The notes beneath the pieces were generated by a model, which saw nothing but the letters and a program-made list of their open reading frames with translations, was not told the DNA's origin and ran no database searches. The translations under genes and the position numbers were made by a program. From a virus (taxonomy: Duplodnaviria > Heunggongvirae > Uroviricota > Caudoviricetes), in IMG/VR virus record IMGVR_UViG_3300035502_000737: a stretch of 64,000 nucleotides of DNA. The stretch is one strand, 5' to 3'. Below, piece after piece: positions 8,168 through 47,586 of the stretch. Numbering within the stretch: the stretch's first letter is position 1; every line of letters starts with the position of its first letter.

Positions 8168-8199
8168 TTTGCATATTTTTCTTTTACTGTTTATATTTG
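8168..8199 (+). promoter_or_regulatory. Bacteroidota housekeeping-sigma promoter
   Basis: TTTG (8168-8171), 20-nt spacer, TATATTTG (8192-8199). Confidence 0.75.
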
Positions 8200-8263: not shown

Positions 8264-9088
8264 ATGGTTTATACATTCATAGAAGGTAAAGCCAAGGTGG
8301 AAAGAAAAGAGGAACCTCGGTTTAATGTCATTGACACGAATAACAAGTTGATTTCCGAATCATGGTTTGAGGACATTGAGGTGTGGCATAATGGTTCAAT
8401 CAAGGTCAAACGTGATGGTAAATGGAATTATATTGCAAAAGATGGAAGTTTTGTTTTTGACACTTGGTATGATGAGCTTGAGGAGGTACAATATGGGTAT
8501 TTTTCAGCCAAGGATTCAGATAGTGGAAGAGAATATCTTATTGATGATAAAGGAAATATAGTTTTTGGAGAAAAGTTTCTTAGCGTTCTTCCGTTTGACG
8601 ACGAAGGCTATGCTATTGTAAGGACCGAACAAGGATATAACTTTGCCAACAAGGAAGGCGAATTGGTTAGTGATGAGTTCTTTGACGAAGTTGAAGAATA
8701 TGACTTCGAGTGGAGAGAAGTGGCGAAGGTTATGAGAAACAAGAAATATAACTTAATCGATAGAAAAGGAAATATTCTGAGTGATATTTGGTTTGATTGG
8801 ATGGAGGAAGGCTATGCTGAGGGATATTTGGTGGTTAAGCGTGACGGGAAGTACAATTTCTTGGATAAGGAAGCGAAGCTGCTTTCTGATATTTGGTTTG
8901 ACTATGCCATTGATTTCCATGAGAACTGCACCTTTGTGAAGTTGGACGGGAAGTGGAATATACTGACGTTATACGGGCAGTTCCTTTACGAGGAGTGGAT
9001 TGAGGATAAGAGTAAAGCGGATGAACTTGTCCGAGATTTTAGAGCTTGCAACTGTTTTCATAAACCTTTTGAACATTGGGAGGAATAA
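8264..9088 (+). CDS. WG-repeat (beta-repeat) protein
   Basis: ~35-aa repeats such as DGKWNYIAKDGSFVFDTWYD and DGKYNFLDKEAKLLSDIWFD. Confidence 0.75.
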   Translation: MVYTFIEGKAKVERKEEPRFNVIDTNNKLISESWFEDIEVWHNGSIKVKRDGKWNYIAKDGSFVFDTWYDELEEVQYGYFSAKDSDSGREYLIDDKGNIVFGEKFLSVLPFDDEGYAIVRTEQGYNFANKEGELVSDEFFDEVEEYDFEWREVAKVMRNKKYNLIDRKGNILSDIWFDWMEEGYAEGYLVVKRDGKYNFLDKEAKLLSDIWFDYAIDFHENCTFVKLDGKWNILTLYGQFLYEEWIEDKSKADELVRDFRACNCFHKPFEHWEE

Positions 9089-9145
9089 GTTTTCCGTTCA
9101 GCTAATATTTTATCATCTTTGTATTCTATTTTCCATTTCTTCCTA

Positions 9146-9152
9146 TATTTAT
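9146..9152 (+). promoter_or_regulatory. TATTTAT motif, putative late promoter
   Basis: 40 nt upstream of ATG 9193. Confidence 0.45.
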
Positions 9153-9192
9153 ATAATGGCGAGGATATTAGAAGACTTGCTCATTACCCTAT

Positions 9193-9552
9193 ATGAAGAA
9201 GAAACAATCTTATATACAAGAGATGTTGGCTGATTTGGACAAGTGCACCAAATTGCTGAAGGAAAGTTATGTTTTTGACGAGGGAGAAGTTCCCACCGAG
9301 TACGATGACGAGCCTCCTTATGAAGGCGAGGAAGGCCCCGACTATGCGGAACAAGAGATTGGCGGCTCTGAGGTTGACGACAAGATTGCCCAAATAAGGA
9401 AGCTTGCCCTTGACGGCATCCAAGAGTTCGCTGAGGACGTGGATTCCGAGGAATACATCTTTTACAAGAAGGTGTGGATGGAATGCGATAAGTTATACAC
9501 AGAACGCAACGAACAGCAGAACGGTGGACAGAATATGAAGCAAAATGCTTAA
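9193..9552 (+). CDS. Acidic hypothetical protein (candidate head-associated; LLKES site)
   Basis: 119-aa acidic ORF containing KLLKESY. Confidence 0.7.
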   Translation: MKKKQSYIQEMLADLDKCTKLLKESYVFDEGEVPTEYDDEPPYEGEEGPDYAEQEIGGSEVDDKIAQIRKLALDGIQEFAEDVDSEEYIFYKKVWMECDKLYTERNEQQNGGQNMKQNA

Positions 9553-9577
9553 TCTTTGTTAAAAGATAATTGATAAT

Positions 9578-9608
9578 TTTGCAGATACAGAAAGAAATCA
9601 TATCTTTG
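9578..9608 (+). promoter_or_regulatory. Bacteroidota housekeeping-sigma promoter driving the candidate ncRNA
   Basis: TTTG (9578-9581), 19-nt spacer, TATCTTTG (9601-9608). Confidence 0.8.
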
Positions 9609-9612
9609 CACA

Positions 9613-9829
9613 CATAAGAAAGTCTTTTAACTAACAAAGAACTTGTCGAGAGATAAGTTTCCGCTGCAGCGGCTACCGAGAGGCCATCTCGGAAAGTAAT
9701 GCGCGTGGATGGTGGTCTTTTTCCATCTTTTGAAGCACGAATAAAAATGGCATTGGAGCACGGTGACGAGCGAAAACCAAGCATTAATCGCACCGTGCAT
9801 GCCCTAGGAATTCGTCCTAGGGCTTTTTT
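9613..9829 (+). ncRNA. Candidate structured non-coding RNA (~215 nt), family not recognised
   Basis: Bounded by a consensus promoter and an intrinsic terminator; five hairpins (9641-9658 with GAGA tetraloop, 9661-9672, 9676-9692, 9708-9727, 9758-9798); no ORF fits inside the unit. 5' end estimated from promoter geometry. Confidence 0.6.
9801..9829 (+). terminator. Intrinsic terminator
   Basis: gccctagg-aattcgt-cctagggc-tttttt; also contains the stop codon of the convergent nuclease gene. Confidence 0.85.
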
Positions 9830-11271
9830 ATTTTATATTTTGCCTTTCCACAGTCCCAAATCCTCTCATATCCTAATTTTATTGCCATTTCCTTTTCGGA
9901 CAGTGTGTATGGTAGGTTGTATCTGAACGATATGGTTTTCTTGTTCATCTTGTGCCTCGGAATCCTATGGGTTGGATTGGCGCTGTCAATGTAATAGTAG
10001 TCTTGTGGCACACATCCGCATCTTTGGAATCCGACACTTTCCAATACATTATTATATATGTTGAATCGGTTGTCTACGATGAATTCAACCTCTTCCGCAT
10101 TTTCTTCAAGAAACAGCTTTAAAGCCATTGATTTTAGGATTTTATCCTCGTTTTTCGCAGAAATCTTGCAAAAATAGCGTTTTAATTCGTAATTTTGACA
10201 ATTTAAACTTTTTCGCTTGAACAAAGAACAAGCGATGAGTTCATTGTGATGGTAGCATCCATAGCATACGGTACATGCGTGATAACCTTCAATCCAATTC
10301 TTGTCCATGAATTCTTTTGCAATGGATTTTTCAATGGTTTTTATCTCAAATCCGTCAATCTCTTCTTCTTCCTTGCTTATCGCTTTATTAATTACATTAA
10401 GCACTTGCTCCTTTTTCATAATGTATTCGTCCTCGAAGAACTGAAATAGGTTGATTCCTTTATCTTCCGCTTGTAAGAACTTGTTGATATGATACTGTTT
10501 GTCCTTGCCGAAACTCTCTGAATGCCATCTCAATCCATTGTACTCTATACCTACATGAATATAAGGCAGCAGTATGTCGATTTCTTTTCCGTCCAACAAT
10601 CTTCTGTCGTTGTGGATGACATTATCCTTACCTACCTTATTAATAATGTATTCCAATATCTCCATCTCATTGGAAGATACCAATTTCCCACATGTCGGGC
10701 ATCCGTGTCCTTGCAAATGGTCGTTGGGACGCTGTAAGAATGCCCCGTGTTTACCACAAACGATGATGACCTTGTCAAGAATGGACTTGTAATCCACGTT
10801 GGAATAGTCGTACTTATAGTTGTACAGCAGATTTGCCCTATGTATGAATGCGGACTTGTCCAACTTATGCTTCTCACTCCTTTTGCTGACCGCACACAAG
10901 GGACATCCTTGTCCATTTAAGTGTTTGGATGGTGTCTGTTGGAATTCTCCGTGCTCTTTGCATATAATGGTTGACTTCACATGCATCCCGTTGAACTCGA
11001 ACTTGGGATAGTCGTACTCATCTCCATGAACCTTCTTAAACCGCTCGATTACTTCCTCACGTGAAAGAGTCCTACCGCTACACTTTGGACATCCTTGCCC
11101 TCTCAAATGGGCGGAAGGGAGCTGTCGGAACTCTCCGTGAAGAGGGCAGATAATTGTGACCTTCGTTCTGTCATTGACGTAGGACACTTTTGAATAATCG
11201 TATCTGTCTCCGTGCTTGGATTTCGCACGGAGAATGAATTCCTCAGTCGTTAGTTTCTTTGTGGAGGACAT
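9817..11271 (-). CDS. Free-standing putative homing endonuclease: three Zn-ribbon (DUF723-like) repeats + PD-(D/E)xK/Vsr-like domain + Hef-like C-terminal domain
   Basis: 3x HG..YDY.K..Y......IIC..HG.F.Q.P..HL.G.GCP.C; EIDILLP...GIEYNGLRWHS; C-terminal RIWDCG. Start set at ATG 11271 (TATTTAC variant 22 nt upstream). Confidence 0.75.
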   Translation of the reverse strand: MSSTKKLTTEEFILRAKSKHGDRYDYSKVSYVNDRTKVTIICPLHGEFRQLPSAHLRGQGCPKCSGRTLSREEVIERFKKVHGDEYDYPKFEFNGMHVKSTIICKEHGEFQQTPSKHLNGQGCPLCAVSKRSEKHKLDKSAFIHRANLLYNYKYDYSNVDYKSILDKVIIVCGKHGAFLQRPNDHLQGHGCPTCGKLVSSNEMEILEYIINKVGKDNVIHNDRRLLDGKEIDILLPYIHVGIEYNGLRWHSESFGKDKQYHINKFLQAEDKGINLFQFFEDEYIMKKEQVLNVINKAISKEEEEIDGFEIKTIEKSIAKEFMDKNWIEGYHACTVCYGCYHHNELIACSLFKRKSLNCQNYELKRYFCKISAKNEDKILKSMALKLFLEENAEEVEFIVDNRFNIYNNVLESVGFQRCGCVPQDYYYIDSANPTHRIPRHKMNKKTISFRYNLPYTLSEKEMAIKLGYERIWDCGKAKYKIKKP

Positions 11272-11361
11272 GTATAATGTAAGTTTTTTAACTGTAAATA
11301 TCAGTGCCAAGAAGAAAGCTTAAAAAATGAGAGAGAAAGGGAGAAAAAACAAGAACGGAGC

Positions 11362-32200: not shown

Positions 32201-32365
32201 ATCTCCGTCATCGCTGGCACTCAGAACGGTCCAACCTCCGTCCACGGCCACATTCAGATTTACTCAAGCGACGGCGGATGGTATTCCGATTACCGAGACA
32301 CCAAGGTTTGGTGCTACAATTCTCCAAAAGGACGCCCTTATGTGGTCTTCAGATTTGGAAGTTAA
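26270..32365 (+). CDS. Baseplate hub / tail-associated lysin with SleB-like hydrolase and C-terminal CHAP/NlpC-like amidase
   Basis: 2031 aa; FGINSIDIEYN...P.VTI.F.DIRG.SLF and PLMYFQL.NVPMF.G.Y.I.KV.H.I hub motifs; LAGVIDNEAR...VC.VLFNR; KCAAYVRDAI...GDI.V...HGHIQIY...W.SD. Confidence 0.75.
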   Translation: MANNNVLYYEPNETASLSLRNKDGQFGIVRQAPPMEDYCVVVDLQVEVPKRPKCASVTTGDTVLYVRYSSAKDGDARISFNKGTTFEGSQNSYMTSLPTELGTFLDIDSTRASGTNSEMFGINSIDIEYNQYMVPVVTIRFTDIRGMSLFGSEDLRHNRTVGGIDNSANAEIAGSFFKCFFTFPYPRFKIIVKGFYGQPIAYELTCSDFRASFEASTGNFGATAKFIGYTFSVLNDLTLSSLLATSNSQYFGGSYWANHPDKFVFSDGTLMPTFMQLMVNVGQMSKKLGKAEESGELIDIQNKSTKLSNVQNALDAYYGTLVAYLANKLHKTSGSRNIYGDFSESVEGLAKVTVPRDVTNAYNLLKDALNSFYDTNVPKPTAYGETKQPNDFKNESDYSKYSNCYSFLGNELQDYLTRNMTKVAQDLVVKQKEVADATNESITKLIGFKPTVKNVTELILAHVDTLVNEIYACAEEVHNGYDTSATYRVDEVDGTRTYCAFPSVTKTVVDNGVTKEEQAWIGELDANAPEAKLVDSLLRATHDIEDITEKAAANVESSEFDGSKALGMNVTVPLIPSDILGTSNPYEGMDIDDIDDFCGTVALRGFIVCSTLYTLPNFAKECGYCDAKNFLKAFPNVSESFKKKVGDNGIISSKTLFNHLWELNNKANSLTKQDCIWNTNNYKYNHLLSNKGGSAYPSEYFQDTNKRMMLPLTHPKWSEFHDTVLSSNGNVGDMQALTQGVDGINKNVFYVDLDIEKYKNYKSDSGYDKVDELFDNLTFDSEEMQGFYENTLNENKTLLCYKASSDGYKGSYQDSMVNSLVGIVGNSGESNKLFAYSLGGYKDGYLYEGTSIFGQEDYYENIKNGNKTLAMLFLNTFDWDYKKFSDFLKGQSNYMYFPYLMLLTIGGYYYRKNKSITFYDGLDFKYGLRKTSYRIHSGTYYLDSLYDADDATQQTLMKMFEEWAEGDFVTLVRNEFEITVKEKFAPNEERVDAEDIILAAKYDSVEDFKNFMNKNCSSRFGKNYKTVNIVKKTKDVSLKLIMNEESEAVSTLTRMILQSCMVVKGKKYIGGSSKISSVSRGILQSYFGGFLDGINEGANVQTNGDIASNAVNEFKTNEKLKIALYNYLKIIWDKWLSGRPKNGVQTAWNLEILKDRWHYLDSFFNKLDDRSTINVFDLVSDVRNSLAKQGYSALSLMQMTYGRNKYLLMCNQSFQSMIDPELMKDMFKPIPFKSIDFSNVSDVPDFIVMYTNEPSKYLNIENGPTKDDSYMIGGDDQQLPRQITTKVEGRGYKIPAFGVTYGGQYQSYFSDVQVSMENPQVTEQSLMAQFQIAQSALGGENGQDYYAVGQDLFTIYSNISYTCTVTMMGCAWVQPLMYFQLNNVPMFKGTYLIQKVKHSIEPGRMTTVIVGTRMAKTSTPLVENGLILKNNTQSGLPTSSWIETENHNAQLSNDCRYKFFNPLSDSDGCGMTSSDLESTVDDYGKNHGGWRYSIGWGGKKIYELLAGVIDNEARNQDELGKQLVCTVLFNRYKAYGSNLTSMFYNSKQHNTTECTPSASSIAIVKDIFTNTPSVLVGKKTYVKNRVPIWKGGKNTKTESSSLTITLHQLKSIDSYCTTNGYNTNYHNPRTDEDKKTLEPIPTSTYIPSWHKGEYMLQHDSVNAYGHVFCSVGVNSYKSGAEYWKNESKKGKNSSSNPSVAARQLFNAIKQTVDYSDSITLKDLSMSADKKGNADTIYITCSPTSGMSQVFDIVLNTYSDYVSELYWVVKQSGSEEPTRIQLRADSTSADKVFAVAKIDSSKRNGVQVLNQCDELNEDFLRSLKKMYGDLSSKETLFKSECRNFSSLTSKDNWVSEAKKILDVNVTECGMQSNSLLDGSDVFSWKGSDSLQNTASPMSASGTYNPSGAASYARNHSLAKSQHKCAAYVRDAIINGGKLNLQSYPISACRYVQHLPKWGFKVVHSGVAGDSFSDFKEGDISVIAGTQNGPTSVHGHIQIYSSDGGWYSDYRDTKVWCYNSPKGRPYVVFRFGS

Positions 32366-32385
32366 AGAAAAAATGCATATCTTTG
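32354..32385 (+). promoter_or_regulatory. Bacteroidota housekeeping-sigma promoter
   Basis: TTTG (32354-32357), 20-nt spacer, TATCTTTG (32378-32385). Confidence 0.75.
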
Positions 32386-32412: not shown

Positions 32413-33015
32413 ATGCGTACATTAGGATATATCGTATCAAAAAGGAAAGTAAATGATTGTGTCGGCTTTGTCTCTGTCGTTTCTGACATTTCCAAGGTTG
32501 AGGACAGAACATTGCCGACACTCATTGTAGGAATAGAGGAGGCCAAGAAGTACAGAAAGGACTTTTCCATCCTTGACAAGAGGCTTGGAGGAAACTTATT
32601 TTGGACGTTCGGGAAGACAGAGAAACGTTCCGACTACGAGTACGACATCAATAGGTTCTTCTGCCATATCATGGACAATGAGATTGGGAAAATCAGATAT
32701 TATTATGTGAACCCTTTTAAGTTGAAGTTCTCCAAGGCAAAGGCGTTGCTCAACATTGTATTCAACGAGAAGGACAAGTACGTATTCGTGGACAAGAGCA
32801 TGATATACATATATTATAACAACTATGTCTTGGGGGTGTCCACGCAAGTGTGTGAGTACATCGGAATCGGGAAGGAAAAGATACTGAAGCTCGTCAAATC
32901 CAACAAGAGCAACAAAATCTGTTACAACGATTCATTCCTTGACTCGAATTTCAAGAAAATAATTAGTGACAAGAAGTACGCTACTGCATATTGCTATATG
33001 CTTAGCCTTTCATAA
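32413..33015 (+). CDS. Hypothetical protein
   Basis: ATG 32413 just downstream of the promoter; LPTLIVG...FWTFGKTEKR. Confidence 0.7.
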   Translation: MRTLGYIVSKRKVNDCVGFVSVVSDISKVEDRTLPTLIVGIEEAKKYRKDFSILDKRLGGNLFWTFGKTEKRSDYEYDINRFFCHIMDNEIGKIRYYYVNPFKLKFSKAKALLNIVFNEKDKYVFVDKSMIYIYYNNYVLGVSTQVCEYIGIGKEKILKLVKSNKSNKICYNDSFLDSNFKKIISDKKYATAYCYMLSLS

Positions 33016-33017
33016 GA

Positions 33018-33443
33018 ATGATAATGGAGAATAAGGAAATAAAGAAAGTACTGATAGGTACATTCGTGGACAAATGCGAGATAATATCTTTCATCGAGCA
33101 AGTGAAGGAAAGGTTTTGTGTCAATGATGACGCGTTTTTGCTATATCATATAAATGAAGACAAGAATGTGATTTTGGCTATGTTTTTAGGCGAAAGAAAT
33201 TACATGCAAGACTATTTGATGGGTGGTTCTATTATTATGTTCATCGCACACGGCTAAATTTTCACATATAACGGTTACAATAGGCTTGCACAGCTTGAAC
33301 ACGGAGATGAAAACACCACTTTGAAGCCGAATTTGGACTATTTAGGCAAAAATAAGTTGGTCACTTTGAGTAGAGGGAGGCTTCAAATCTTCACTATTGA
33401 AAAAATAAAAGGCCTAAAAGCTGAAATTTCTCAAGAGCCGTGA
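33018..33443 (+). pseudogene. Hypothetical gene interrupted by a single in-frame TAA (33255-33257)
   Basis: After HG-TAA the same frame stays open for 61 codons (IFTYNGYNRLAQLE...KNKLVTL...) to TGA at 33441, with no ATG restart. Confidence 0.55.
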
Positions 33444-33450
33444 TATTTAT
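33444..33450 (+). promoter_or_regulatory. TATTTAT motif, putative late promoter
   Basis: 23 nt upstream of ATG 33474. Confidence 0.55.
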
Positions 33451-33473
33451 AATAAAATCGATTGTACTGCAAC

Positions 33474-33761
33474 ATGGCGCGTTTTATCACAAAAAGACAA
33501 AATGTAAGACCTTTGCAGAAGCGTAATTTCCAAATTCCGCGCGTTAAGGATGAAGAAGTTGCTGTTGCAGAGGAAACAAAAGAAGAAACAAACGAAGGAG
33601 AGGTTATGGATACGAAAGAAAAGATATTGGCTGCGTCTGAGATTCTCAGCGAACCTACCAACAAGGTGAAGAAACTGAAGAAGGAAAAAGGCCTCATCGA
33701 GAAGATGGAGAGCGCTAAGACCATTCTGACGGAAGACAACAAGGAGCTTTTGGCTGACTGA
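33474..33761 (+). CDS. Small charged hypothetical protein
   Basis: ATG 33474 in frame with the track ORF; KKLKKEKGLIEK...ILTEDNKELL. Confidence 0.7.
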   Translation: MARFITKRQNVRPLQKRNFQIPRVKDEEVAVAEETKEETNEGEVMDTKEKILAASEILSEPTNKVKKLKKEKGLIEKMESAKTILTEDNKELLAD

Positions 33762-33784
33762 CATAAACACATTGGCAAGGAAAT

Positions 33785-34609
33785 ATGAATAAAGAGTTGC
33801 TAAAGGAAAACAAGTTTGCGGAAGCTCACAAGCAGTTCATGCGTCTTTGTGAGTGGTCTTATGTCCCACAGAGTCTTGAGGAGGAAGGGGATGACGACGA
33901 TATCCAAGAACCGCAAGGAGGAGGGATGCCCCAAGACGGAGGCGGTGATATTCCACAAGGTGGTGGAGGAATGCCCCAAGATGGCGGAGGACTTGGCCAA
34001 GACCCAATGGGCGGAGGCGGTATGCCGCAAGGAGGACAAGACGCACAAGGAGGTGAAATGCCTCCACAAGACCCGAATATGGGTGGGGGAGAAATGCCTA
34101 CCGCCGTGGACGACGCTCCGTTGGATGATGACTTGGGAGGCGACGAGGAAGAGGACGATGTCCTTGACGTGGATGAACTGACCGACGCCCAAGAGAAGAT
34201 GAACGGAAAGGTGAATCATGTGGGGCAGAAGCTCGGAAACGTGGATGACAAGATTCAAGCGCTGATGGCATCCCTTGAGAAGGTGGAACAGATGATTGAC
34301 GCAAACAACCAAGAGATTTCGGATTTCAAGCAAGAGTTCGAGAAGAGGAACCCCACGCAGACGGAGAAACTGAACCTACGCTCGTTGGACTCTTATCCGT
34401 TCAACATCAATCCCAAGGATTATTGGGCGGAGAAGGGTATTGACCCGAACAGCAATTACGTGGGCTATTCCGACAACAGCGAGCCCACCACACAAGAGTA
34501 CGAGATTACGAACAGTGACGTGGACGACTTTGACGAAAGGTCCGTGGAGCAGTCGTTCGATATCGAGGACGAGCTGAACCAAGATTTGAAGAAGATTTTC
34601 GGCTTATAG
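33785..34609 (+). CDS. Acidic protein with Gly/Pro/Gln/Met low-complexity repeats and a coiled coil (scaffold/core-like)
   Basis: PQGGGMPQDGGG repeats at about 33910-34100; coiled coil; LRSLDSYPFN motif; LLKE site near the N-terminus. Confidence 0.7.
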   Translation: MNKELLKENKFAEAHKQFMRLCEWSYVPQSLEEEGDDDDIQEPQGGGMPQDGGGDIPQGGGGMPQDGGGLGQDPMGGGGMPQGGQDAQGGEMPPQDPNMGGGEMPTAVDDAPLDDDLGGDEEEDDVLDVDELTDAQEKMNGKVNHVGQKLGNVDDKIQALMASLEKVEQMIDANNQEISDFKQEFEKRNPTQTEKLNLRSLDSYPFNINPKDYWAEKGIDPNSNYVGYSDNSEPTTQEYEITNSDVDDFDERSVEQSFDIEDELNQDLKKIFGL

Positions 34610-39562: not shown

Positions 39563-39594
39563 CTTGGCGTTGAAAAAACTTTTGAGTATCTTTG
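39563..39594 (+). promoter_or_regulatory. Bacteroidota housekeeping-sigma promoter (variant -33 box)
   Basis: CTTG, 20-nt spacer, TATCTTTG (39587-39594). Confidence 0.6.
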
Positions 39595-42971: not shown

Positions 42972-45900
42972 ATGGTTGTACAAAAAAGTGACAATTCCTT
43001 TGAGGAATACAGCATTGAAAAGGTTAGGAACGGCATCTGCGAGGCTTATACGAGCGTTGGAGAGGAATGTCCCGAAATCCTAATCGAGAGCCTTGCCAAG
43101 AACTTGTACATCTACGACAAAATCAAGACCTCCGAGATTAGAAGACAAGTGGAGGAATGCTTGATGTCGTTTGATAAGAGAGTGGCGAAGGCGTATATCG
43201 CTAAATTCGATGAAATTGACGCGAACGGGAAACTTCTTAAAAGGAAGAAGGATTTCATCACCAACTACATCGATGCGTCCAATGCGTCAACGGGCTCAAA
43301 ATATGACCCCAACGCCAATGTGTCCAACAAGAACATTGCGACCCTTAACGCTGAGATTCCAAAGCAAGGCAATATCCAATTCAACCGATACAACACCTCT
43401 AACAAGATTGCTTCCATGTTTTCCAAGAAACTTGCCAAGCAGTATATCGAGGACTTGGAATCGCACATCATATACAAGAACGATGAGTCGACATTCGGTA
43501 TCAACTCTCCGTATTGTGTGGCCGTGCAGAGCTATCCATTCCTAATCGGAGGCTTGAAAGGACTTGGAGGACAGTCCTCAGCACCCAAGAACATCGACTC
43601 ATTCTGTGGTTCCTTCGTGAACTTCATCTTTGCGGTTTCCTCTCAGTTCGCTGGCGCTTGCCTTCACCATTCTCAACCCCTCGCCCTCACATCTCCTAGC
43701 GGAGACACACAAAGCATTCCCGTCAAGGACTTCGTGGACAGCATGTTCCTCAAGTCATCCACAACGGCTGAGTTTTACAACGAGCAAGGGCATTGGCGGT
43801 ATTCCGACATTTCAGAACTCGGATACTCGGTGGAGGAGAACGGCAAGAAAGTGAAGGTGAACAAGGTGTTCAAACGCACGTACCACGGCCAAATCTACGA
43901 AATTATATCCAAGAGCGGACTCGTGGCGAAGGTGTCAAAAGACCATAAGTTCAAGAAACTGCAAGGAGAGGAGTTCGTAACCACAAAGGCAGAGGACTTG
44001 AAGGTCGGAGACGAAGTGGAGGTTTCAAGCTATATCTGCAAGGGGAACACCGACGAAATCGTCGAGATAAGGAATTCCGATAACGACGAAAGATTCGTGT
44101 ACGAGATTGAGACCGAAAGTCATTGGTACAATTGCGGAGGATACATTACACATAACTGTGCCGTCGCAGGCTTCTTCAACATGATGGACTACTTCCTCAG
44201 AAAGGAATGGGGAAATGATTACTATCAGCATGAGAACGAAGCGACAAGGTTCAAGTTCGTGGACGGAAAGAAAGAGGGTGTCTCCATTTCAAAGCAGATT
44301 GACCAATATTTCCAACAGATTGTATACAGCATAAATATGCCAAGTGCTGCAAGGGGTTATCAGAGTGCGTAAATAACCTACCCTTTCATTCCATCCTTTT
44401 TCCACATGTTACCATGAAAAAACGAATTGAAGATACCGACGAAATGCGACAATACATTTACAATGAATACGTCGTTAACGATAAGACACGTAATGAAATT
44501 ATTGCAACATTAGATGTCCCGTTAGGCGCGTTGAAACGTTTTTTGAAAAGGAATCACATTCAAAAGGAAAAATTGGTAATTACGAAGGAGGGTTTGGAAA
44601 AGGTGATTGGTGAAGGCAAAACTCGTGGAGAGATTTGTAAGATATTTAATTGTTCAAAGGATTCTTTACGAAGAAGATGCAAGGAATATGGTCTTAAAGT
44701 GAAGGATGATGTTTATGTTCAATATGACCCAAGCAATGATGAGAAAATGATATCGATGTACGAGCAAGGATACTCTAGCACTCAGATTGCTAAAGCATTC
44801 AAGTTAGCCCATCGAACCGTATTGAATCATTTAATAAAAAACGGTATTGAAAGACGTTCATTATCTGATTCGCAAATGGCATATAAACAAAAAGTGCTTA
44901 GCGAAGATTTAAATGACTATGATACCATGTTTCAACTGCATATCGTCCAAAAAATGCCGTTGGCTGAAATAGCAAATCATTACGGATGTACTCCTAGAAC
45001 GGTCAGAAGGAGACTTATTAAATTGGGTATTGATGTAAAGGATTACAGATATGACGATGTGAAAGATACTTCAACTTATATTGAGTTTCATGAAACATTT
45101 AAGTCAACAGTTAGGAATAGGCTTCGCTATCTTACCAAGCAAGCGATGGAAAGAGACGGATACAAATGCAGAGAGTGCGGAAGTACGGAGAATTTGGAAG
45201 TACACCACATAAAGCGTTTCGGGCTTATCCTAAGAAGAATCCTCAATGAACATAAAGAATTGAACGAGTTTGACAAACGAGAGGAATTGTTCCAAATCGT
45301 TATTCATGACGAAGAAATGACTGATTTGGATAACTTAATCACCTTATGCCAAGAATGTCATAGAAAGACATTCGTTTGGAATGATAAATAGTATGCGCAC
45401 GTTAAACTTCTCTAATTGCTGGGAAGCGCTTAGAGCTTTCTGTACTCCTCTTACCTAGTAATAGGTAACGAGAACATACCGTAATGGGTATGGTATAGTG
45501 AAAATCAGAAAGATTGGGTAATCAGCAACGAAGAATCCCGTTTAGCATGGGATTTGTGTTCAACGACTATCGAAAGGCAGTCATAGATGACTGAACCGAG
45601 TAGAGTACACTCAAGCGAGTGGAAACGGGAAGGGCTACGAGTTGGCCGTGATATAGTCTCGTCTCTATTAGAAAATAATAGGCAGCTCAAGAAAGAGCGC
45701 ATGTGGAGTAGCGAACCGCATGGAAGACAACGTTACTAATTTTGGATATTTTGACAAACCTTATTTTGAAGGAATGTATGGAGAGTTCATTTTTCCCGAC
45801 GGGACACGACCACAATGGGAGAGTGTATCCTACCTACAGAAGAAGTTCATGCGTTGGTTTAACAACGAAAGAACAAAATGCGTATTGACGTTTCCCGTAA

Positions 45901-47586
45901 ACAAATCTGCGGCTTTATGCGGTAACGCATATTGAAAAACCCATCTAATTGCTGGAAGAGTTCCTTGCGTTCATTAATGACAAACGCATGGAGAGAATCA
46001 GCAGCGAAGAATCCAATTCCAAGAAAATGAGTTGGATTTGTGCTCAGAGACTATCGAAAGGCAGTCATTGTTGACTGAACCGAGTAGAGTACACTCAAGC
46101 GAGTGGAAATGGTGGGAGTCCAACACCGATAATGTTGGATTGTGATATAGTCCAAACATGTATGGCGACATACAGAAGTTCAAAAAAAAGAGAACTGCGC
46201 AAGAAGTAGCGCTCTTGCGTGAATACAATTGAGAGACGATGTCATTACTTTATAAGGACGGGGAGTTCGTCGACAAGGAGTATGCGGATTTCACTGCGGA
46301 GATGTATGCGGATGGCCATTCCTTCTTCACATATATCAGTGATTCTCCCGACACGTTGAGTTCTTGTTGCCGACTTTCCAACAAGATTACGGAGAACACC
46401 TTCAGTTTCACCAATGGACTGACGGGTGAGGCAACGGGCTCCAAGTCCGTCATCAGCCTTAACTACAACCGAATCACACAGAACTTTGTAAGGGAAGTGT
46501 ACGGAGGAGATAGGGACGCGTGGAAAAAAGACAAGGAGCAGTACAAGGAGAAGTTCAAGGAATACTTGATTCCCATCCTTGAGAGGGTATATAAGTACCA
46601 CACTGCTTATAACGAGATTCTGTGGGATTTGTACGAAGCGGATATGCTTCCAGTCTATAAGGCTGGGTTCATCCACCTTAACAAGCAGTACCTCACGCTT
46701 GGCTTGAACGGTGTGAACGAGGCTTGGATGTTTCTTGGCGGAGAGTGTAGGTATTCGGAGGATTATGTGGAATTCTGCAAGCTTATCTGCGGAACGATGA
46801 AGGAGCAGAATACGCTGCATAAGACGAAGAAGACAATGTTCAATTCCGAGTTTGTGCCTAGAAACGGTGGGCACGTTAAACCTCTTTTGATTGACTTGGA
46901 AACCATTGAGAGATGGCGACAAGGCGCAAGCAACAGAATTTGTAGTCTGTGTGCAGCGTGAACGACTGAGTAAAGAGGACTTTGGCAATTATGCCAAGGT
47001 GTGCGACAGTCTGAACTTCCATGGTAAAACATGGAGAGAGGAATCCGAAGAGGTTCCTCCGCTTGACGAATTATCGTCAAGTCTCCCTTTTCCACAAGAT
47101 ATGCACAATATCTGTAAGGGGCGTAACAGAGTGGCCGAAAGTCTTGGAATCAAGAACTACAAGTGGGATAAGCAAGACAAATATTGGGTTCCCGAAGGAA
47201 GGAACTGCTATACGTCTTATTTCTTCCTTCCCGACGACGAGGAAGTGAGTGTGATTGAGAAGATGCAGCTTCATGGCAAGGAGTTTGTGGAGAACTTGGA
47301 CGGAGGAAGCGCTTGCCATATCAACTTGAAGGAACATTTGTCATACGAGCAGTACAGAAAGCTGCTTGAGGTGGCTGGAACTATTGGAACCAACTATTTT
47401 ACCTTCAACGTCAAGAACACCGAGTGCCGTGACTGCGGATACATTAGCAAGCACACGCTTGAGGAGTGTCCCATCTGCGGAAGCAAGAACCTTGACTATT
47501 GGACAAGAATCATCGGATACCTTGTCAAGGTCAAGAACTTCTCCGAGGGAAGGCAGTTTGAGGAAGGAAAGAGAGTGTACGAATAA
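42972..47586 (+). CDS. nrdD: Anaerobic (class III) ribonucleotide reductase; join(42972..44370,45733..45898,46232..46859,47134..47586)
   Basis: Joined exons total 2646 nt (881 aa; 715 aa after intein removal); ATP cone, SSCCRL, C-terminal CRDC/CPIC and glycyl-radical TRIIGYL; junctions restore QSAFTNFGYFDK, TFPVETM and EFVPAESLG. Confidence 0.95.
43659..44156 (+). mobile_element. Mini-intein (166 aa, no endonuclease) in NrdD
   Basis: FAGA|CLHHSQ ... SKDHKF ... YEIETESHWY.CGGYITHN|CAVA: Cys1, block B His, terminal His-Asn, Cys+1. Confidence 0.9.
44371..45732 (+). mobile_element. Group I intron 1 of nrdD (1362 nt) with an HNH ORF in the P1 loop
   Basis: Exon ends in U, intron ends in G; P1 GUGCGU:GCGCAC (45395-45400); P aattgctgggaa 45414, Q aatcagcaa 45520, R ttcaacgactat 45559, S gtgatatagtct 45648. 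Confidence 0.92.
44414..45391 (+). CDS. Intron-encoded HNH homing endonuclease with N-terminal HTH repeats
   Basis: DGYKCRECGSTENLEVHHIK...DNLITLCQECH; several HTH-like segments; AT-rich. Confidence 0.88.
   Translation: MKKRIEDTDEMRQYIYNEYVVNDKTRNEIIATLDVPLGALKRFLKRNHIQKEKLVITKEGLEKVIGEGKTRGEICKIFNCSKDSLRRRCKEYGLKVKDDVYVQYDPSNDEKMISMYEQGYSSTQIAKAFKLAHRTVLNHLIKNGIERRSLSDSQMAYKQKVLSEDLNDYDTMFQLHIVQKMPLAEIANHYGCTPRTVRRRLIKLGIDVKDYRYDDVKDTSTYIEFHETFKSTVRNRLRYLTKQAMERDGYKCRECGSTENLEVHHIKRFGLILRRILNEHKELNEFDKREELFQIVIHDEEMTDLDNLITLCQECHRKTFVWNDK
45899..46231 (+). mobile_element. Group I intron 2 of nrdD (333 nt, no ORF)
   Basis: U|...G boundaries; P1 CCGU:GCGG (45909-45912); GUAA-looped P2; P aattgctggaa 45947, Q aatcagcag 45996, R tcagagactat 46044, S gtgatatagtcc 46142. 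Confidence 0.92.
46860..47133 (+). mobile_element. Group I intron 3 of nrdD (274 nt, no ORF, divergent core)
   Basis: P1 GUGCCU:GGGCAC (46869-46874); P10 GCCG:CGGU; P7 gactg (46964-46968) : cagtc (47007-47011); ends in G. Confidence 0.88.

Follow-up and report, generated by a model that had tools for sequence, protein, structure and literature searches.

A candidate stand-alone gene for a structured small RNA in an uncultured phage, probably a jumbo phage of Bacteroidota

Judged from its sequence, a short intergenic unit in an uncultured phage is a real, well-delimited and previously undescribed RNA gene, whose family stands outside Rfam. It lies on the plus strand of a 64,000-nt stretch of viral DNA, the whole of which was analysed and is here called the window. 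We interpret the unit as a stand-alone moron gene encoding a structured non-coding RNA of ~200–215 nt that would act in trans, and we put the probability of this reading at roughly one half. A diverged homologue, represented by contig L013, retains the promoter boxes, all five hairpins and the terminator.

The genes of the window include those for a tail sheath, a gp19-like tail tube, a tape measure, a UvsX-like recombinase and a DnaB-type helicase, and a split NrdD with a group I intron is also encoded. No cultured relative was found at the DNA level by blastn against INPHARED. No INPHARED phage has a tail tube more than 42% identical to that of the window, and IMG/VR contains 479 tail-tube relatives, many of them on contigs of 200–410 kb. 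The source is probably a large uncultured myovirus (jumbo phage) with a Bacteroidota host.

Promoter, fold and terminator of the unit

The RNA occupies the gap at positions 9553–9816, between the stop codon of a 119-aa gene of no known family (9193–9552, plus strand), which is the upstream neighbour and the synteny anchor, and the stop codon of a convergent endonuclease gene. A preliminary description of this DNA had proposed a consensus host promoter, and it is present at 9578–9608 (plus strand) as a promoter of the Bacteroidota sigma-A type, in which the −33 element TTTG (9578–9581) is followed by a 19-nt spacer and the −7 element TATCTTTG (9601–9608). TTTG and TAnnTTTG are the consensus of the Bacteroidota primary sigma factor, as cited in PMC7366714. 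The exact arrangement TTTG-N19-TAnnTTTG has a single match on both strands of the 64-kb window, with 0.22 expected by chance, and from its position transcription is predicted to start at ~9612–9615. When the spacer was relaxed to 17–21 nt, the TATCTTTG box (mostly then followed by CA) together with a −33 TTTG was also found at 1838, 32354 and 34688, one of these sites preceding an SSB-like gene. The RNA promoter has its TATCTTTGCA box in common with the SSB gene and other genes of the window, a bare TATCTTTG box lies at 39587 and a TATATTTG variant lies at 8168. Since boxes of the TATCTTTG type stand before non-structural genes of the phage, the RNA shares the promoter class of those genes.

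A second, near-consensus promoter, TTTG-N20-TATCTTTGCA, is located at 32354–32385 (plus strand) at the end of a 2031-aa ORF, and downstream of it ~770 nt (33015–33785) are devoid of any long plus-strand ORF. This stretch could be another non-coding unit.

The plus strand of the RNA region folds with −75.8 kcal/mol (z = −4.80), a stability reached by none of 200 shuffled sequences, and the fold of the minus strand is far weaker (z = −2.39); G-U pairs and z-scores alike favour the plus strand. A pair-by-pair check of 9640–9798 bore out all five hairpins of the preliminary description exactly as they had first been written. The 5′ leader (9613–9639) is variable and without conserved structure, and is 17 nt shorter in the homologue. 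Helix 1 (9640–9659) has 8 bp and a GNRA tetraloop, which reads GAGA in the window and GCGA in L013. Helix 2 (9661–9672; CCGC-TGCA-GCGG) and helix 3 (9676–9692; CCGAGA-GGCCA-TCTCGG) follow, with two of four and three of six pairs, respectively, changed on both sides relative to L013. A conserved unpaired block, J3/4 (9693–9707; AAAGTrAwGCGyGTG(GA)), leads to helix 4 (9708–9727; GATGG-N10-CCATC), in which two of the five pairs are changed on both sides. A second conserved unpaired block, J4/5 (9728–9757), holds the invariant sequence GAAGCACGAA. Helix 5 (9758–9798) has a stem of 8 + 3 bp, formed by GCACGGTG plus CGA on one side and TCG plus CACCGTGC on the other. Its apex is the invariant AGCGAAAACCAAGC, in which a GC/GC mini-stem closes a 9-nt loop, GAAAACCAA, and the 3′ side bears an A-rich bulge. 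RNAalifold proposed that J3/4 (GCGUGG or GUGUGG) pairs with the helix 5 loop (CCAAGC). Such a pairing is possible and fits the single C-to-U change; the two sides, being otherwise invariant, give no further information.

The unit also has, as first described, its own GC-rich intrinsic terminator (9801–9829, plus strand), consisting of a 9-bp stem with six GC pairs (9801–9823), a 5-nt loop and a T6 run (TTTTTT). The stop codon of the endonuclease gene (9817–9819) does indeed sit within the 3′ half of the terminator stem, and the terminator, to judge from its sequence, would also stop the convergent endonuclease transcript.

The non-coding reading of the unit is supported. The only plus-strand ORF (9699–9926) crosses the terminator, as had been noted, and a six-frame comparison found no ORF common to both lineages: L013 lacks the ATG codons of the window, indels of 1 and 2 nt put the two sequences out of phase, and the conserved nucleotide blocks do not fall in the same frame in window and homologue. 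The earlier impression that the RNA is not recognizable as a tRNA, tmRNA, 6S, SRP or RNase P RNA or a riboswitch also stands, as neither the Rfam covariance models nor ARAGORN gave a match. With Rfam 15 at gathering thresholds, the sole match in the whole window was a group I intron at 45889–46175; at E ≤ 10 the RNA region returned noise only (rli42 with 14.6 bits against a cut-off of 80, isrD with 14.6 against 37). ARAGORN detected no tRNA or tmRNA in the window.

Four specific identities were considered and rejected. Mimicry of tmRNA, suggested by a likeness to the E. coli sequence, was set aside after alignment to five Bacteroidia tmRNAs scored at shuffle level. A riboswitch or attenuator leader is at odds with the convergent orientation of the next gene, and an alternative pairing seen by eye (UGGCAU/AUGCC) is absent from L013. 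For a type I toxin–antitoxin RNA, neither strand has an ORF conserved between the two lineages, and for a type III toxin–antitoxin RNA there are no internal repeats.

Conservation, distribution and the insertion slot

The homologue was reached through the 119-aa protein, which has 37 relatives in a collection of 5.8 billion proteins. Five contigs (L008–L012) are near-identical copies of the window, and the RNA is identical there. Two proteins that are 67–70% identical to the 119-aa protein (P0002 and P0003) are encoded on the short contigs L013, L014 and L015, and all three contigs carry one identical diverged copy of the RNA in the same gap, of 266 nt. A covariance model built from the five helices of the window copy alone recovered the full-length L013 copy with an E-value of 1.9e-11.

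Between the window and L013, 16 of the 34 base pairs are changed on both sides and 97% of the cells still pair, counts that are inflated, for helix 1 especially, because the alignment was fitted to the structure. As a control, when the partners were slid by 1–3 columns, just 30–39% paired. Separate minimum-energy folds of the two sequences gave the same order of hairpins, the full-length L013 fold having a modest z of −2.05. The covariation evidence comes from two distinct sequences, which are too few for a statistical test. Identity between the lineages is 45% at stem positions and 73% at unpaired positions; the third codon positions of the adjacent gene are 48% identical, about the level of the stems. 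Three blocks are conserved: AAAGUrAwGCGyGUGGA, GAAGCACGAA and AGCGAAAACCAAGC. The terminator differs at three positions between the lineages, two of which constitute a compensatory swap of C-G to G-C, and in L013 it is not part of the endonuclease coding sequence, so that its conservation is not attributable to coding constraint. That the structure and the blocks have been kept at ~50% synonymous identity points to purifying selection. Within the limits of a two-sequence comparison, this pattern is the signature expected of a functional structured RNA. Thus, the conserved and covarying structure in relatives on which the preliminary description had staked its reading was found in one diverged homologue, with compensatory changes in the helices, and is absent from the other relatives.

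Beyond these two lineages, the RNA was not recovered. Blastn against INPHARED phages gave no homologue of the RNA, and two-block pattern scans of viral, metagenome and genome contig collections (the metagenome and genome sets being model-filtered) gave chance matches only. A 17-mer from helix 3 matched six viral contigs, all by chance. A covariance model of the RNA (R2) produced nothing credible in 80 IMG/VR loci around the tail-tube gene of relatives, and found no copy in five relatives of 280–400 kb that are rated 80–100% complete. The same model gave four weak matches in 151 Bacteroidia genomes, approximately the number expected by chance and all without the conserved blocks, so an origin from the host is not supported in the genomes searched. 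The RNA family is very narrow, as a young element of minor importance might also be.

The downstream neighbour of the RNA is a minus-strand gene for a protein of 484/497 aa (9817–11271/11310) with three DUF723-type zinc modules and a nuclease domain. It matches PHROG 559 (E 3e-84) and PHROG 3339, and its zinc modules match Pfam DUF723 and DUF4379. The preliminary description had called it a Zn-ribbon/PD-(D/E)xK nuclease; a convergent nuclease with zinc modules it is, and the PHROG 559 match makes homing endonuclease the better name. Relative to many other phages of the group, this endonuclease gene is an insertion. In many relatives (e.g. L151, L153, L152 and L146), the 119-aa gene is followed within 40–180 nt by the tail-tube gene. 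In relatives whose version of the 119-aa protein is at most 56% identical (L001, L128, L129 and L131), a gap of 50–77 nt holds a simple terminator and no RNA, and in three of these (L001, L128 and L129) a reverse-oriented homing endonuclease gene stands between the 119-aa and tail-tube genes, again without the RNA. Only the window and L013 lineages have both the RNA and the endonuclease in this slot. A slot that may be empty, filled by an endonuclease or filled by an endonuclease and the RNA is an insertion hot spot (9553–11326 in the window), and the RNA unit is accordingly a moron.

Its position in such a hot spot beside a homing endonuclease, the very narrow family and the group I intron elsewhere in the window would all suit a decaying remnant of a mobile element, that is, a functionless fragment of an intron or endonuclease cassette. 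This origin is nevertheless highly improbable: the unit matched no group I intron or other Rfam model even at E 10, it resembles nothing else in the window, and its compensatory changes and conserved blocks persist where synonymous sites are ~50% identical.

Transcription from the upstream gene offers a different way to do without a separate RNA gene. A search between the stop codon of the 119-aa gene (9552) and the RNA found no terminator, so the transcript of the 119-aa gene may read into the RNA, and such read-through transcripts would probably carry the RNA sequence as a 3′ UTR as well. The element might then act in cis only, as a structured 3′ UTR and bidirectional terminator that stabilizes the 119-aa mRNA and insulates it from the endonuclease transcript, the promoter being incidental; that RNA-less relatives have just a terminator hairpin at this place agrees with such a role. 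We consider a purely cis-acting element distinctly unlikely. In the L013 copy both promoter boxes and the 19-nt spacing are exact and the sequence of the spacer is mostly different, a pattern that argues for independent transcription. Moreover, neither the conserved unpaired blocks nor the GNRA loop would be necessary for insulation, for which a gap of 50 nt suffices in relatives.

The helix 5 apex in the endonuclease mRNA and in other phage RNAs

The preliminary description had further suggested, as a speculation, that the RNA is a partner of the adjacent nuclease. Synteny does not support this, as homologous endonucleases occupy the same slot in the three RNA-less relatives named above. A weak but more specific link was suggested by the sequence of the helix 5 apex. 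The 14-mer GCGAAAACCAAGCA has one other match in the window at ≤1 mismatch, where 0.04 would be expected by chance, and this match lies within the mRNA of the endonuclease. There it forms part of a 9-bp hairpin, UCUCCGUGC-GAAAUCCAA-GCACGGAGA (11207–11233, minus strand; codons 13–21; z −3.05), which has a GCACGG/CCGUGC stem, the same GC/GC closing pairs as helix 5 and a 9-nt loop, GAAAUCCAA. Loop and closing pairs together agree with the apex of helix 5 at 13 of 14 positions. In RNA-less relatives, homologues of the endonuclease have this protein motif as well but lack the hairpin.

This likeness may be a coincidence or may mark a shared recognition hairpin; it is seen in one lineage and within a conserved coding motif. 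If the hairpin is shared, the RNA could be coupled to the endonuclease, with the apex of helix 5 copying the mRNA hairpin and competing for the same factor (a repressor, an RNase or the endonuclease itself), thereby tuning the timing of the nuclease. The low chance expectation of the 14-mer match, its location within a strong look-alike hairpin, the lack of that hairpin in endonuclease homologues of RNA-less relatives and the adjacency of RNA and endonuclease in both RNA-bearing lineages are consistent with such coupling. However, the evidence for the mRNA hairpin comes from the window lineage, the hairpin encodes the conserved motif AKSKHG, so that coding constraint may partly explain the match, and the same family of endonucleases functions without the RNA in other lineages. 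Furthermore, the hairpin is shared by RNAs on other contigs that have no endonuclease as a neighbour (the L038 type, see below). Coupling to the endonuclease is therefore, in our judgement, unlikely.

Recurrence of the apex in other phages was assessed by exact 14-mer and 17-mer scans of IMG/VR. An identical apex of 18–20 nt, AGCGAAAACCAAGCAUUAAU, is present in a group of RNAs that we call L038-type (L038, L084, L307, L308/L315, L310, L317/L328, L321 and L329), in which it is carried by a different, covarying 5-bp stem (AGUCA/UGACU). The L038-type unit is conserved, ORF-free and ~330 nt long (8540–8960, minus strand, in L038); it has covarying helices of its own, no Rfam match and no cultured relative. 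Full units are bounded on both sides by a stem-loop (CTACGACATCTTTAGTGTCGTAG in L038), the upstream one preceding a promoter-like site, a layout resembling the promoter-early stem-loops of T4-type phages. The L038-type RNAs and the window RNA are alike in being unannotated structured RNAs without an Rfam match and in sharing the apex. They differ in that the hairpin lies near the 5′ end in the L038 type and near the 3′ end in the window RNA, and in that the promoter of the former is sigma-70-like, unlike the Bacteroidota type of the window, which indicates that the host is probably different from that of the window phage. Single contigs of 147 kb and 194 kb bear two copies of the L038-type unit, one of these copies (L328) being a 5′ fragment.

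The loop GAAAACCAA was also observed on two further stems. A structured element of ~170 nt occurs in L056 (3380–3560, 4900–5080 and ~5712) and in L066, L027, L114 and others (IMG/VR sample 3300045988); it is present in two to three copies per contig before different ORFs, has no Rfam match and starts with the hairpin GUAGC-GAAAACCAA-GCUAC. The IMG/VR contig L041 has a UAUAGC-GAAAACCAA-GCUAUA hairpin, and at 9127–9187 (minus strand) the same contig carries a RAGATH-18 RNA (Rfam RF03064, 69 bits).

Several extensions of these likenesses were examined and discarded. Outside the hairpin, comparison of the window RNA with the L038-type and L056-type elements gave shuffle-level scores, so a wider homology was rejected, and none of the neighbours of these elements is an endonuclease, which removes a link through that gene. 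A look-alike of the L013 loop in the L309 group is part of an ORF and was judged to match by chance. A model of the hairpin (R3) recovered the window copy alone among relatives, and its match in G002 falls within an ORF and is without the motif.

The recurring components (a stem, the GC/GC mini-stem, the 9-nt loop GAAAACCAA and the A-rich 3′ bulge) could make up a portable recognition module employed by unrelated phage RNAs and by the mRNA of the adjacent endonuclease, in which case the window RNA might serve as a decoy or scaffold that captures the factor binding this hairpin. We regard this proposal as doubtful. If it were true, the apex module would be a new and widespread motif for RNA–protein or RNA–RNA recognition in phages, and would offer an initial way into the function of a class of orphan phage RNAs.

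Mode of action and comparison with known systems

According to the reading that we favour, the RNA unit is a moron cassette that entered the genome between the 119-aa gene and the gene for the homing endonuclease. Host RNA polymerase with the primary sigma factor would start at the consensus promoter, whose host type would place expression before the late programme of the phage, and transcription would end at the intrinsic terminator. The five hairpins of the predicted fold would hold three conserved, mostly unpaired segments, namely J3/4, J4/5 and the apical loop of helix 5. We infer that these segments are the functional surface and that the RNA acts in trans.

Binding or titration of a protein seems more likely than a plain antisense mechanism directed at an mRNA. 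A compact fold with a mode of action based on protein binding or tertiary structure, rather than on seed pairing, is suggested by the large number of short helices, by the GNRA loop that helix 1 has kept, by the large invariant loop of helix 5 and by the lack of conservation in the 5′ leader. On this basis, a role as a trans-acting decoy or scaffold is weakly favoured. The preliminary description had proposed an early phage sRNA serving as a protein sponge, an anti-defence decoy or a trans regulator, and these may be regarded as candidate functions.

Antisense targets were sought at the starts of 47 genes in the window, which represents 64 kb of a larger genome; the duplexes computed for J3/4, J4/5 and the helix 5 loop were no more stable than those that shuffled versions of the blocks gave. 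A search of the window with the reverse complement of the helix 5 loop yielded no meaningful match. These results bear on the alternative that the RNA is a base-pairing regulator similar to Bacteroides GibS or to phage anti-sRNAs, using an unpaired block as a seed to pair with host or phage mRNAs and thereby alter their translation or stability. The unit has the canonical layout of an intergenic sRNA, with promoter, hairpins, single-stranded stretches and terminator, as defined by Ryan et al. (2020; PMC7366714), and its unpaired blocks are better conserved than its stems. Yet none of the three blocks surpassed its shuffled versions at the gene starts of the window, and conservation is lacking in the single-stranded 5′ leader, the part that provides the seed in GibS. 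A base-pairing regulator is thus no more than tentatively entertained here.

The window RNA, which we continue to regard as a stand-alone and probably protein-binding RNA, is a clean candidate for study: its promoter matches the consensus exactly, it has a terminator, compensatory changes have preserved its five helices, and three of its unpaired blocks are conserved. To our knowledge, hardly any work has been done on the RNAs of large Bacteroidota phages from gut and rumen, and we know of no structured RNA of theirs with a known function. If the helix 5 hairpin is a shared recognition element, several orphan phage RNAs would be tied to one mechanism; if it is not, the RNA is one more lineage-restricted phage small RNA. 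Small-RNA morons that combine a host promoter with a terminator are a known kind of phage element, and this one is confined to two lineages of an uncultured jumbo phage.

Among known systems, the Bacteroides intergenic sRNAs (e.g. GibS; PMC7366714) have the same TAnnTTTG/TTTG promoter, hairpins, conserved single-stranded stretches and terminator as the window RNA. They also belong to the same size class, 100–250 nt, and have their own transcription start, which is predicted from the motif in the present case. Of the features that define them (Ryan et al, 2020), the window RNA has its own sigma-A promoter, present as a motif and conserved in the homologue, and a 3′ Rho-independent terminator. 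It differs from them in being phage-encoded, in its five helices and in having neither sequence nor Rfam kinship with them. GibS has a conserved single-stranded seed at its 5′ end, whereas the 5′ end of the window RNA is not conserved.

Stand-alone small RNAs of phages include OOP of lambda, sar of P22, c4 of P1/P7 and the stable RNAs rnaC and rnaD of T4. The window RNA is homologous to none of these and does not lie in a tRNA cluster. A further difference is that it is antisense to a neighbouring gene only over the 13-nt overlap at the terminator. The T4 RNAs rnaC and rnaD are stable structured RNAs of unknown function from a large myovirus, and the window RNA, too, is a stable-looking structured RNA in a large myovirus. 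Finally, it resembles phage morons, for it constitutes an independent promoter–RNA–terminator unit placed between genes that are adjacent in relatives.
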